From the IMG/VR virus record IMGVR_UViG_3300037455_000250, positions 8,968 to 72,967 of that record: 64,000 bases of DNA. The stretch is one strand, 5' to 3'. The first letter of the stretch is position 1. Every line of letters starts with the position of its first letter. This stretch comes from a virus (taxonomy: Duplodnaviria; Caudoviricetes). The notes beneath the pieces were generated by a model, which ran no database searches, was not told the DNA's origin, and was given only the letters and a program-made list of their open reading frames with translations. The translations under genes and the position numbers were made by a program. Positions 596 to 58,400 of the stretch are shown piece after piece.

Positions 596-844
596 ATGAA
601 TAACGATACTAAATATGAAAGCAAAGCGATTACAACGCAAATTAGAGCGACTTCCAGAGTAAGTGCAAAAATCGGTGACGATTTCTACACATTAGAGTTC
701 TCCGAAGAAAGAACTATTCCTGATGTAGAGGGCATTGACCTTGAAAAAGAGCGTGAACTTCTGTGGGAAGATGTTAATTATTCCGTTGATACACAATTAC
801 AAGACACGATTAAATCTGTACTTGAAAGTAAGCGTAAGAAGTGA
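596..844 (+). CDS. hypothetical protein
   Basis: 82 aa, strong GAGGAG RBS. Confidence 0.75.
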   Translation: MNNDTKYESKAITTQIRATSRVSAKIGDDFYTLEFSEERTIPDVEGIDLEKERELLWEDVNYSVDTQLQDTIKSVLESKRKK

Positions 845-901
845 TATTATAATGAGTACATACTCATAGATTTTGTTTTTGCCATAAGAACAATATCTCT
901 T

Positions 902-999
902 GTCGGTTATTTGGTGTGAGCATTTAACCGCTATAATTGAATAACCGACGAACTAACTTGTCGATGGAGTTCTCACACAACTCTATTGACAAGTTTTTT
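902..999 (+). promoter_or_regulatory. structured leader / attenuator of the replication operon
   Basis: hairpin 902-911/940-949; 17-bp hairpin 955-971/979-995 followed by a T-run; loops GTGTGAG and CTCACAC are complementary. Confidence 0.7.
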
Positions 1000-1023
1000 A
1001 TTGCAAGATTTAGGAGTTATTTT

Positions 1024-1767
1024 ATGAATAGAGATTTTAAGGGAGTGTGGATTAGCAAAGATATTTGGCTTAATCCAGATTTAGATATAACAGAAAAGGC
1101 ATTATTTGCAGAGATTGATAGTTTAGACACTGAGAATGGGTGTACGGCAAGTAATAAATATTTTACAGAGTTTTTTAGAATTAGTGAGAGTACGGTAACC
1201 CGTGCTATCTCACACTTAAAAGAATTAGGGCTTATTGAGAGTTCGTTTGACGGAAAAATTAGAACTTTGAGAGTAGTCAAATTGACGAGGCAGAGTAGTC
1301 AAATTGACGAGCATATTAATACAGTTAATAGTGATATATCTAATACTCAATTAAATATTATTCAAGATAATACTAATATAACTAATAAAGAAGATACATA
1401 TAAAATAAAAGGGCAAAAATTCGTGGACGATTTTAACTCAATTTGTAAGTCGTTACCAAAATGCACTCGATTAACTGTTAAACGAAGTAAGGGTATATCA
1501 AATATATTAAAGAAATATTCCTATGACGATATTTTAACTGTTTTTGAAAAGTTAGAGGAGTCAGATTTTTGTACTAATCGTGGGGGCAAAGGATGGAGAG
1601 CAGACATTGATTTCATTTTAAGAGAGGATAAGTTTGTTAGTGTTTTAGAGGGTAAGTATGATAATCAAGGTCGAAGATGTAATGTAGAAACAATATCACA
1701 GGGAAATAAGAAACATCTTTCAGCAGAAGAAAGAGAGGCGATAATTAAGAATGGAAAGAAATTCTGA
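1024..1767 (+). CDS. replication initiator (N-terminal HTH, replisome organiser type)
   Basis: HTH-like ASNKYFTEFFRISESTVTRAISHLKELGLI; C-terminal WRADIDFILREDKFVSVLEGKY; internal iterons; upstream of helicase loader; start moved to ATG 1024 (AGGAG RBS). Confidence 0.8.
   Translation: MNRDFKGVWISKDIWLNPDLDITEKALFAEIDSLDTENGCTASNKYFTEFFRISESTVTRAISHLKELGLIESSFDGKIRTLRVVKLTRQSSQIDEHINTVNSDISNTQLNIIQDNTNITNKEDTYKIKGQKFVDDFNSICKSLPKCTRLTVKRSKGISNILKKYSYDDILTVFEKLEESDFCTNRGGKGWRADIDFILREDKFVSVLEGKYDNQGRRCNVETISQGNKKHLSAEEREAIIKNGKKF
1270..1311 (+). repeat. tandem iterons (2 x 20 bp), putative replication origin
   Basis: AGAGTAGTCAAATTGACGAG at 1270-1289 and 1292-1311, followed by an AT-rich tract. 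Confidence 0.75.
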
Positions 1768-6337: not shown

Positions 6338-7026
6338 TGGCATACTATTTAATTCATACTTGCAACCAACGATTTTGGTATGTAAAAGAGTATTTAATCC
6401 CGTCTATGATGTTACAAGGCATTCCAGCAGATAATATATTTGTCTATCGGGATTATAACGAGATTGGAAATCTAAGGGCATTCATTGATAGTTGTAATAA
6501 GAATGTTCAACAGTGCGAGAAGAATGGCATTAGCGGAGTTTGGCACTTACAAGATGATATAATTGTCAGTAATGACTTTGCACAAAAGACACAGTTATAT
6601 GATAACGGATTAGTTTGTGGGTTTACTTGTGCTTACGATAAACAACCAGAAGAGGGTTTCTTTCAGTTATATCAACAAAAGATGTGGTATAGTTTTCCGT
6701 GTATGCGAATACCAACAAGCGTGTTAAGAGCGTTCGTTGATTGGGCAAATGTAAATCTATGGCAAAGTAAATATTTTAAGTCGTGGGTTAAGAGAAACAA
6801 AGCAGATGATATGATTTTCAAAGAATGGCTATATGATAACTATCCAGATATGACACATCATAATCTTGCCCCAAACATTGTAAATCACATTGATAAGTAT
6901 TTAGGTGGTTCTGTTGTAAATACACAAAGAGATAAAGACCAAGATACTATGTCAATCTTTTGGGAAGACAACGGAGAGTTACAGAATGTAATGAAGTTCT
7001 TGCTTGACAGAAAACAGAATATTTAG
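6337..7026 (+). CDS. putative GT-A glycosyltransferase
   Basis: GNLRAF...HLQDDIIVS acidic motif, SFPC, PNIVNHID. Confidence 0.55.
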   Translation: MAYYLIHTCNQRFWYVKEYLIPSMMLQGIPADNIFVYRDYNEIGNLRAFIDSCNKNVQQCEKNGISGVWHLQDDIIVSNDFAQKTQLYDNGLVCGFTCAYDKQPEEGFFQLYQQKMWYSFPCMRIPTSVLRAFVDWANVNLWQSKYFKSWVKRNKADDMIFKEWLYDNYPDMTHHNLAPNIVNHIDKYLGGSVVNTQRDKDQDTMSIFWEDNGELQNVMKFLLDRKQNI

Positions 7027-7032
7027 TATAAT
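7004..7032 (+). promoter_or_regulatory. sigma-A promoter for ssb-polA
   Basis: TTGACA-17-TATAAT; -10 sits inside AATATT-N6-AATGTTT. Confidence 0.8.
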
Positions 7033-55437: not shown

Positions 55438-58400
55438 ATGGCAAATGAGAATAGAATGAAATTCGAGGCCGAGTTCAACTTTAATACCAAGACTGCGGCG
55501 CGAAAAGCACAACAACTGTTATACACCCTCAATCAGTTTAAAGATGTTGAAGTTCAAGGAAGTGAAGAGGCTAAAAGACTGCAACGCGGATTAAGCGGTG
55601 TTGCAAAAGAGGCTACAAAAGCGTTTGGAGAACAAGGCATCGGTCGTTTCTCCACTAATGTACGTAATATTGACAGATGGAACACTAAATTAGAAAAGAC
55701 AAGAACAGAAATAGCCGCTACAAAGACAGAATTAGCCCAATTAACTTCTGTTAGTAATAAAACAGAGGCACAACGTAACATAGATTTAGCCGCTGCCGTT
55801 GGTGTGCGTGAACACCTAAAGAAGTTGGAAAATGACCGTTACGAGTTAGCGTTAAAGATTAAGAGAGCAGAGCAGGATAACGCATCCATTAATGCCAAAG
55901 CAGAAAATTATATCAAACAGTATAATGACGCATTTAATCGTGCCATTGATATACGAGCAATCCGTATAGAAAAGATTGCCCAGAATGAGATTAATTTTGC
56001 AACAGAGGCCGCACAACTCCAACGTAGTGCGACCGCAAATGCTCAAAAAACCGCTGACGCAACGGAAAACATTATTAATGCTCAAAAGAGGTCTAACGAA
56101 GAGGCTGCCAAGTTCCAACAACAACAAAGGGCTGCCGCATCCAGCGCGGCCTCAGACGCTACGACAAAGAATATTACAGACACGACAACGGCAGTATCAC
56201 AAGAGGCGAATGAGTTTAAAGCACTCGTTCAGGAAATTGCGTTGTTACGCAATAGCGGACAAGACGCATCCAAACAATTTGCAGAATTGGAGACACGTTT
56301 ACGCTCTTTTGATACCACTACCGCAGATTTTTACCAATTAGATAAATACCTTACAAACATTAAAGAAACTATTGCATATATTAAAAAGGACTTGAATAAT
56401 CCTTCTAATCTTGCAGATGTGGCAAATAGTTTGTTTTCTGCGAGAGTGCCTGCCCAGAGAGCACAGGCCAAATTAAACAAACAGGCTGAAACTACGGGTA
56501 ACACGGCCGCTCAACAAGCGGCACAAAGAGCAGAAATGGAAAAAGAGCGGGTTCTTATGGAGAAAGAACGTGCCGCTCAACAGGCAGCCCAAGAAAAGTG
56601 GGATGCCCAGCAAAAGGCACAAAGAGAAAAAGAACTGGCTCAAATGGAGAAAGACAGAGCCGCTAAACAAGCCGCACAAGAAAAATGGGAAGCCAAGCAA
56701 GCCGCACAACTGGAAAAAGAAAGACTCCAGATGGAAAAAGAACTGGCTGCCCGACAGGCTGCGGAAGACAAATATAATGCTAAACAACAAGCAAAACAAG
56801 AGGCACACGCGGCTGCCCAACAGAAAATATATGACAGAGTTAATGCTCAACAACAGCAGGCAGTGCAGGCAAAGCAAGCCGCTATCATGGCATTAATAGC
56901 GGCAGACACACAATATAAAACAACTATGCAGGCCGTTCTTGACACCACTGACAAAGTTAGTGCGTCAATGCGTATGGAAGGGGCTAATGCGGGAATTGCT
57001 GAACTTATCAGACGATTAACAGAGTTAAAGGCAGCAAAAAAGGCACTTGAAGATTATGGATTACCCAAAGAAATGGATGCTCGTTATGCTATGCTCATCC
57101 AAATGATTGCTCAAACAGAGCACCAAATACAGTCGTATAATAGTGAACTTAAAGCGTCCACAACTGCGGCAGATAATGCTGGTAAAGCAGGACAACAAAG
57201 TGCAAACAACATTAAAAAAGGGTTCAAAGAACTTCCTGCTATTCTTAAAGCAGTAAAGAAAGGGTTTAAGTCATTATCATCACTTGCAAATAAAACACGC
57301 TCTTCCGTTGGCGGAATGGCTAAGTCTATGCAATCAAATTTCAAGCGTATGCTTTCCACGCTTACAAAGTACGTGTTTGGTTTCAGGAGTTTGTTTTTCC
57401 TTGTTCGTAGACTGAGGAGGTATATCGGAGAAGGAATTAAAAATATGGCTCAATTTAACGATGGCAACAACCACGTTAATGAGAGCATTACCAAATTGTT
57501 ATCGTCATTACTGTATCTTAAAAATGCGTGGGCAACGGCATTCTCACCAATATTGCAGTTCGTTACTGTATGGCTTTCTAATCTTATTGATAGTCTTGCA
57601 GAGGCAGGAAATGCTTTTTCAAGATTTTTAGGACGTCTTATGGGTGTTGGCTCTGTATTTCAGGCGGTTAAAGTTGACGCGGCTGACTACGCAAAGAGTT
57701 TGGATAACGCAGCAGGCAGTGCTGGTAGCGCGGCAGATAAGACAAAGAAACTTACAGATAGACTTGCCGCATTTGATGATTTGAATGTGCTGGGTGTTGA
57801 TAACGATAATGACGGCTCAGGCGGAGGCGGTGGAAGTGATATTGAGGATTATGTGCCTGACCCGAACGAAATGTTTACAATTCTTGATGTTGCACAGGAT
57901 GTTAAAGACAAATTAATCGCTATGTGGACTGCGGGAGATTTTACAGACCTCGGTAAAAATATTGCCCAAAGTATAAAAGACGGATTATTGTCACTCAACG
58001 AACAGTGGCCAGAAATACAAGAAACCGCACATAAAATAGGTACAAGTATCGGCACATTCTTAAATGGCTTGTTAAGTGACCCAACTGTGTTTGAAGAGGC
58101 TGGCAAGGCAGTTGCCGGTGGTCTTAACACTGTTGGTCAGGCTATTGCGGGCTTTTTTGAAACATATGAAAAAGGTAGTATTGGTTCTTCAATCGCAACA
58201 TTCTTTAGAGGAATATTTGAAGATTTTGATTGGGGTACTGCCGGTGGTAATGTTGGAGAACTTGTTACCACATTCTTTACAGAAGTATCTGCTTTGTTAA
58301 AAGAATTTCCTACAGAGGATGTTGTCACGGGTATTCAAGAGTTCTTTGAAGGCATTAAATGGGATGAAGTTGTTGCCTCTATTTTTGAGTTTATTGGTTC

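Follow-up and report, generated by a model that had tools for sequence, protein, structure and literature searches.

A leader RNA with conserved kissing loops, one of them the loop of a predicted terminator, precedes phage replication initiator genes

Introduction

Is the synthesis of a phage replication initiator controlled by contacts between RNA loops? Loop-loop RNA control of initiator synthesis is a classic of plasmid biology. The question is raised for a phage by a 72,967-bp IMG/VR virus, judged to be complete, in which two hairpins with complementary loops lie just before the replication initiator gene, and the second hairpin is a predicted intrinsic terminator. We analyzed bases 8968-72967 of this record, a stretch of 64,000 nucleotides that we call the window. 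All positions are those of the window unless another sequence is named, and homologous leaders are referred to by L numbers.

Every gene around the leader is on the plus strand (Table 1), and the initiator is the first gene of an initiator-loader-helicase-primase block. No tyrosine integrase was found in the phage genome, and the nearest relatives of its DNA polymerase, at about 40% identity, are from virulent phages of Clostridium (phiCTP1) and Streptococcus (Dp-1). The phage is apparently virulent and of Bacillota type, and its host is probably a member of the Bacillota. The contigs with homologous leaders come from metagenomes of ruminant and other guts. Because a DNA similarity search of public phage records gave no match, and because the 82-aa protein encoded next to the leader has no homologue among isolated phages, we have no cultured model for this element.

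Table 1. Positions of the leader's features and of the neighboring genes in the window.
Feature	Position	Strand	Description
Genes upstream of the 82-aa gene		+	Helicase and small ORFs
82-aa gene	596-844	+	Unknown function; about 1,960 metagenome homologues in the protein database
Leader promoter (predicted)	822-850	+	-35 TTGAAA (822-827), 17-nt spacer, extended -10 TG-a-TATTAT (842-850)
Leader region	845-1023	+	Between the 82-aa gene and the replication initiator gene
Palindrome	852-867	+	ATGAGTA-ca-TACTCAT, arms 852-858/861-867; specific to the window
HP0 (5'-proximal hairpin)	868-898	+	From folding; relatives carry a hairpin of different sequence there
HP1, outer conformer	902-911/940-949	+	From folding; 10-bp stem, 28-nt loop
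HP1, inner (nascent) conformer	904-909/925-930 and 912-913/921-922	+	Shows L1 as a 7-nt loop
L1	914-920	+	GTGTGAG; 5' partner of the loop-loop helix
HP2 (predicted intrinsic terminator)	955-999	+	Stem 955-971/979-995; T-tract 994-999
L2	972-978	+	CTCACAC; entire terminator loop, 3' partner of the loop-loop helix
RBS	1012-1016	+	AGGAG
Replication initiator gene	1024-1767	+	ATG at 1024; HTH_36 domain; PHROG "replication initiation protein"
Genes 3' of the initiator		+	IstB-like loader, DnaB helicase, and primase; further on, family A DNA polymerase

Results

Collection of homologous leaders

Homologous leaders were collected by three routes. The first went via the replication initiator protein. 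The second was a DNA pattern on the stem of hairpin 1 (HP1), run against viral, metagenome, and genome collections, which gave 16 distinct true leaders. The third used an alignment of the 82-aa protein (A2) together with homologues from a protein database that were traced to their contigs. This last route does not depend on the sequence of the RNA, and it recovered leaders with wholly different stems (L047, L048-50, and L051). To score leaders 3' of the 82-aa gene, we used a detector that finds the terminator from its predicted fold and takes no account of HP1; it scored 24 distinct leaders. The formal covariation alignment (A5) contains 21 distinct leaders. A covariance model (R1) found a single copy of the element in this phage genome and did not reach the divergent relatives.

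When 185,579 species genomes were scanned with the pattern, there was one hit, in a Lacticaseibacillus contig (L036), which has no terminator and looks unrelated. Another locus that looks unrelated, on a metagenome contig (L031, 2942-3030), has the words of the HP1 stem with an unrelated loop between them, and 3' of these come a T-run and another copy of GTCGGTTAT.

The two loops are complementary in every leader

The original prediction was that the loops of the two hairpins are complementary over 7 nt, and it proposed covariation across related leaders as a check. The stem of HP1 and both loops are at the positions that it gave, and L1 and L2 can form seven Watson-Crick pairs. Across the related leaders, complementarity was present in every homologue and was conserved by compensatory change, with 14 variants of the loop pair in total. 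In all 16 of the pattern-found leaders, every nucleotide of the terminator loop (6-7 nt) is matched by a complementary motif at a fixed offset in the loop of HP1. The stem-blind detector found complementary loops in 24 of 24 leaders, with the partners 55-68 nt apart, and complementarity also holds in the four distant leaders that were checked separately (L045, L047, L048, and L051). In alignment A5, all 147 cells of the helix (21 leaders) are Watson-Crick, and five of the seven pairs, amounting to 40 cells, changed on both sides. None of 500 shuffles matched the observed pairing or the observed covariation score, and sliding the columns by 1-3 positions gave just 28-59% pairing. The changes can be followed between close relatives: for example, L057 and L060 are one compensated loop substitution apart. 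Pairing is also specific, as each leader's loops pair with each other (24/24), while loops from different variants never do (0/506). Matched loop mutations in related phages are therefore the mark of a real RNA element; judged by its covariation, the L1-L2 helix is a real and conserved RNA feature.

Such matches are rare by chance. A shuffled terminator loop met an upstream complement in 0.8% of trials, and among the window's 15 terminator-like hairpins, hairpin 2 (HP2) is the only one with a 7-nt loop complement upstream. A terminator-like hairpin near 58153 has a 6-nt loop complement, which we attribute to chance because the site is within an ORF of 1,394 aa and its folding energy is not distinct from that of shuffled sequences (z = -1.1).

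The pairing ends exactly at the borders of the loops: the flanking nucleotides cannot extend the helix, and the terminator stem is never involved. Since the helix uses loop nucleotides only, it is compatible with a folded terminator. In all 21 leaders, the kissing state (the best fold with free loops plus the L1-L2 duplex) matches or surpasses the stability of the best fold without a pseudoknot (medians of -41.0 versus -37.3 kcal/mol, with -7 to -11 from the duplex and no pseudoknot penalty counted). The 5' end of L2 reads C-U-N-R, which is a YUNR-type motif, in 10 of the 11 seven-nt variants. YUNR motifs accelerate RNA-RNA pairing in antisense systems (PMC6562991), and a 5' YUNR in one loop, the mark of an antisense-type recognition loop, is thus present in the sequence of L2.

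The class of loop pair is independent of the type of initiator, in that the same loops are found with different initiators and vice versa, which argues against a binding site for the initiator. Identical 82-aa proteins are found upstream of three loop classes. We considered diversifying selection on the loops and rejected it, as their entropy is equal to that of other free or compensated positions. Two or three loop-pair classes can be present within a single metagenome (L023, L024, and L034 in AUXO01; L008 and L011 in 3300003523; L025, L032, and L033 in JAEIGA01).

Hairpin 2 resembles an intrinsic terminator

HP2 had been described as a long stem, with G-U pairs as its two deviations, that is closed by the L2 loop and ends in six T's. 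This geometry is correct to the nucleotide, and the T-tract is conserved. The stem has 17 bp, five of which are G-C, and it is followed by TTTTTT; a stable stem-loop and a U-tract on the transcribed strand, which characterize intrinsic terminators, are both present at the sequence level. Among plus-strand terminator-like sites in the first 8 kb, HP2 ranks as the strongest. The terminator hairpins of the homologues have folding energies of -15 to -25 kcal/mol, with a T-tract in all of them.

Thirteen of the 17 pairs of the terminator stem changed on both sides, and G-U oppositions far outnumber A-C oppositions in these stems (26 versus 3). This excess indicates that the structure was selected on the plus strand, as single-stranded RNA. 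The whole 186-nt region folds with -58.3 kcal/mol, as compared to -31.8 +/- 3.6 for shuffled sequences (z = -7.3; 0/200). The linker between the closed outer stem of HP1 and HP2 is 5 nt.

Hairpin 1 has two alternative folds

The original prediction noted that CGGTTA (904-909) has two alternative partners. Indeed, TAACCG is present at both 925-930 and 942-947, either copy can pair with CGGTTA, and the alternative pairing is conserved among the homologues. If the RNA ends before the outer 3' arm, then the inner hairpin is the predicted fold in 16 of 16 leaders (-8 to -11.5 kcal/mol), and it exposes L1, in most cases on a loop of exactly 7 nt. For the whole HP1 segment, the outer stem is favored (-12.6 to -21.7 kcal/mol). 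The pairs that close the loop of the inner hairpin covary, with three pairs changed on both sides and 89.5% pairing versus 30-42% when slid. In one loop class, the inner and outer 3' arms form a 10-nt direct repeat.

Among the pattern-found leaders the outer stem does not vary, which is an effect of ascertainment (the pattern was anchored on this stem). In the distant homologues, an outer stem is present but has a different sequence. Three of the distant leaders (L045, L047, and L048) have a nascent hairpin that shows L1, and L051 has it only partly.

Promoter and 5' end of the leader

A consensus scan identified a sigma-A-like promoter, which sits inside the 3' end of the 82-aa gene. The predicted start is near 857, and a terminated RNA from this start would be about 140 nt long. 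TGnTAnnnT and a TTGnnn -35 hexamer are present in 25 of 25 plus-strand leaders, with a spacer of 17 nt in 24 of them and of 18 nt in one. The original prediction had placed a TATAAT just before a palindrome. The palindrome is as described (Table 1), but the TATAAT (848-853) overlaps it and does not precede it, and the promoter at 822-850 gives the best fit. Compared to the related leaders, the palindrome is an insertion that only the window has, located at the predicted start, and it lies outside the conserved element; the distance from the -10 element to HP1 is 51 nt in the window, versus 33-40 nt in most relatives. The palindrome also doubles (852-869) as a mini-ORF of five codons (ATG AGT ACA TAC TCA TAG), which has no RBS and is absent from the relatives. 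We found no conserved small ORF with an RBS in the leader alignment.

Another TATAAT lies inside HP1 (932-937). We rejected it as a promoter because it is not conserved: the relatives have TATAAC, CTGAAC, or TTAAC. A promoter scan of the minus strand identified no promoter-like site in 850-1020, and neither hairpin is followed by a T-run on that strand.

The leader stands before three types of initiator gene

The position before the replication initiator, as originally described, was maintained in the homologues with a readable downstream gene, except that at three loci a small ORF is the first gene after the leader (in some contigs, this is an ORF of 55 aa or 164 aa). There are three main types of downstream gene. 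All of them match replication-initiator PHROGs and have a DnaD-like C-terminal part in common; the types differ in their N-terminal domains (L002, L008, L019, L025, L032, and L033). On its 5' side, the leader adjoins the 82-aa gene in all homologues where this is readable. The leader marks a recombination-prone module boundary.

From the T-tract to the initiator's ATG, no promoter was predicted by the consensus scan. The next strong promoter-like site, at 7004-7032, is a perfect sigma-70 consensus (TTGACA, 17 nt, TATAAT). Expression of the genes from the initiator to the primase should therefore need read-through of HP2. It is because of this dependence, as expected from the consensus scans, that we call the leader an attenuator.

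As for the 82-aa protein, it has no match in Pfam (E <= 10), PHROG, or PDB. Its structural model (a long beta-hairpin and a long helix; pLDDT 86) gave nothing below E = 0.6 in Foldseek. The idea that it is an RNA-binding partner of the leader is unsupported, as the Foldseek and Pfam searches were empty and the atlas returned unnamed viral clusters only. The atlas also gave a weak lead to the Enc34 ssDNA-binding protein (0.82). The label "Csm3" that JGI gives to two of the homologues has no support.

Comparison to known RNA systems

An Rfam search had been proposed as a check, and it identified no family match for the window or for seven divergent homologues. With Rfam 15, positions 400-1500 of the window (E up to 10) had chance-level hits only, far below the gathering scores, and the seven homologues had nothing at E <= 0.1, including to C4/IsrK (RF01695). 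In our literature searches we found no description of the leader; a survey of candidate structured RNAs in IMG/VR (PMC10690425) could include it. The leader is a well-supported phage RNA family that is undescribed in the databases and papers searched. A riboswitch or T-box is not indicated, as there is no Rfam match and no conserved core that overlaps the terminator stem.

The leader can be compared to several systems that control replication initiators. In ColIb-P9 repZ (IncI-alpha/IncB), the loop of a leader hairpin controls expression of the initiator by pairing further along the same RNA, just before the initiator's start, and this pseudoknot competes with antisense kissing at one loop (PMC4705826). 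Here too, an upstream hairpin loop pairs with a distal site in the same RNA before the rep start, and the pairing is short (7 bp in our case). However, the partner in IncI-alpha/IncB is a linear stretch beside the RBS, and the pairing activates translation, whereas the partner in the phage leader is the loop of a terminator, with the L2 site 34-40 nt 5' of the RBS. Also, IncI-alpha/IncB needs a leader peptide, translation of which exposes the distal site, and has a competing antisense Inc RNA from a separate transcript, and we found neither a conserved leader peptide nor an antisense promoter.

Among phages, the immunity of satellite phage P4 relies on the CI RNA, which is made by processing, pairs with two linear sites in the lysogen, and governs premature termination, and the short IsrK RNA acts on its own read-through transcript (PMC4825925). 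The leader is like the P4 CI RNA (C4/IsrK) in having same-strand complementarity within the leader of a phage replication operon, and P4 also derives specificity from short complements. Unlike in P4, there is no match to Rfam's C4 family and no integrase, and the pairing is from loop to loop with a terminator.

The plasmids pT181, pIP501, and pAMbeta1 share with our phage an intrinsic terminator in the initiator's leader, in Gram-positive elements, and the use of kissing loops for recognition. But their control depends on a countertranscript and on a pre-emptor stem that excludes the terminator stem and vice versa, and we found neither. ColE1's RNA I and RNA II form fully paired 7-nt loop-loop helices, but these are opposite-strand RNAs with three loop pairs and the protein Rop; the phage leader has the same fully paired 7-nt loops between stable hairpins, with one pair and on one strand. 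In phi29 pRNA and in the X-Y kissing domain of the enterovirus 3' UTR, covariation preserves the match between the loops even though their letters vary among relatives. These RNAs belong to other viruses and serve in the ring of a packaging motor or in RNA replication, without a terminator.

The proposed likeness to plasmid copy-control attenuators therefore holds in part. The terminator-like HP2 and the conserved kissing agree with it. An antisense promoter and a conserved antiterminator pairing do not appear: in the leader alignments, we found no conserved upstream partner for either arm of the terminator. We rejected similarities of HP0 to the terminator arms (in L008, L025, and L033) as a candidate antiterminator, as they are absent in L057, which has the same HP0. 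Because the pairing is confined to the loops and there is no conserved antiterminator, a classical terminator/antiterminator switch is not evident.

Discussion

What might the loop-loop helix do? The reading that we favor, with about an even chance, is a kinetic attenuator, in which capture of L2 by L1 tunes read-through into the replication operon. A leader RNA of about 140 nt would run from the sigma-A-type promoter through HP0 and the two-state HP1 to HP2, and it would also exist as a small RNA that ends at this terminator. The genes from the initiator to the primase would be expressed solely by read-through of HP2. During transcription, the inner hairpin would first present L1 on a pre-organized 7-nt loop, and L1 would be packed away again when the polymerase has completed the outer 3' arm (940-949). 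Whether or not L1 captures L2 in the brief time before termination would set the fraction of polymerases that read through. That the helix alters termination is something we infer, and the direction of the effect is not deducible. As no conserved partner for the terminator arms was found, there is no obvious route by which the helix could switch termination.

The helix might also act in trans, as a self-targeting sensor of dose. In this scenario, which we consider unlikely, L2 of the terminated leader kisses L1 of nascent leaders. The terminated leader, in its outer-stem form, would build up with the number of genome copies and would compete with the cis pairing, so that read-through is shut down as copies rise; the loop variants would define classes of phages that do not cross-regulate each other. 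Given the promoter and the efficient-looking terminator, the short RNA is expected to be abundant, L2 carries the YUNR-type motif that is typical of fast-pairing antisense loops, and this expected abundance and the motif are why we keep the trans-acting reading open. Also, L1 is on a pre-organized loop in the nascent fold only. The 14 variants are mutually orthogonal (0/506), several classes are present in one metagenome, and leaders of three loop classes can follow genes for the same upstream protein. There are precedents in the competition between pseudoknot and antisense RNA in ColIb-P9 (PMC4705826) and in IsrK and the P4 CI RNA (PMC4825925). On the other hand, intramolecular pairing should outcompete intermolecular pairing when both loops are free, the loops do not have excess diversity, and for a phage in which no integrase was found, it is not apparent why copy control or immunity would be needed. 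Similarly doubtful is a copy-sensing timer that works without an antisense gene, in which one transcription unit would make both the regulator, a terminated leader with L2 on its stable terminator hairpin, and the target, a nascent leader that shows L1 transiently, and competition between pairing in cis and in trans would set read-through into the replication genes.

A role in structure or stability alone is another improbable reading. The terminator would then be constitutive and the helix would compact the small RNA or the 5' UTR, leaving read-through unchanged; it might protect against ribonucleases, or form a long quasi-continuous helix for processing by RNase III. The compatibility of the helix with the folded terminator, the lack of any visible switch structure, and a kissing state that equals or exceeds the best pseudoknot-free fold in stability would all be expected, and a conserved 5' hairpin such as HP0 is typical of stabilizers. 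However, this would leave unexplained the transient inner hairpin, whose closing pairs covary, and the strict placement right before three types of initiator.

Finally, it is very improbable that the element is a DNA-level signal, with the 7-mers as inverted half-sites of an operator or origin or with hairpins in single-stranded DNA. In favor of this, all pairs of the loop helix are Watson-Crick and none is G-U, as in an inverted repeat of DNA, and iteron-like repeats are nearby within the initiator gene, but the half-sites are about 58 bp apart and each lies exactly in a hairpin loop, the covariation of the stems includes many G-U pairs that are valid on the plus strand only (26 versus 3), the loop class varies independently of the initiator type, and a conserved promoter and T-tract bracket the element.

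These leaders are from a large group of uncultured gut phages in which both kissing partners are on one strand, one of them is the loop of a terminator, and no antisense gene was found. If the helix does tune read-through, as in the kinetic attenuator, then this would be a new way to regulate an intrinsic terminator and a new device for the timing or dosage of phage replication. If the trans-acting reading is true, then the orthogonal loop pairs would be specificity classes that prevent cross-regulation among co-infecting relatives. Whatever the mechanism, the RNA family marks the start of the replication module and could aid annotation, and, as a natural collection of no fewer than 14 mutually orthogonal kissing pairs of 7 bp on a common scaffold, it may be useful for RNA engineering.

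Short repeats within the initiator gene

The initiator gene itself contains two kinds of short repeats. A copy of the L2 heptamer, within codons for A-I-S-H-L, is found as CTCACAC at 1209-1215 of the window and as CTCACCT in L002 (3188-3194) and L005. As a control, the other variants were searched for in the same sequences and had no matches (0/180), and the copy is absent from the 20 other loci. This copy may have arisen by chance, or it may be a third pairing site that is specific to the lineage. The initiator ORF also contains 19-bp direct repeats (1271-1289 and 1293-1311) with a period of 22 bp, each with the palindrome GTCAA-a-TTGAC. These repeats look iteron-like, and 1271-1311 is probably the replication origin.
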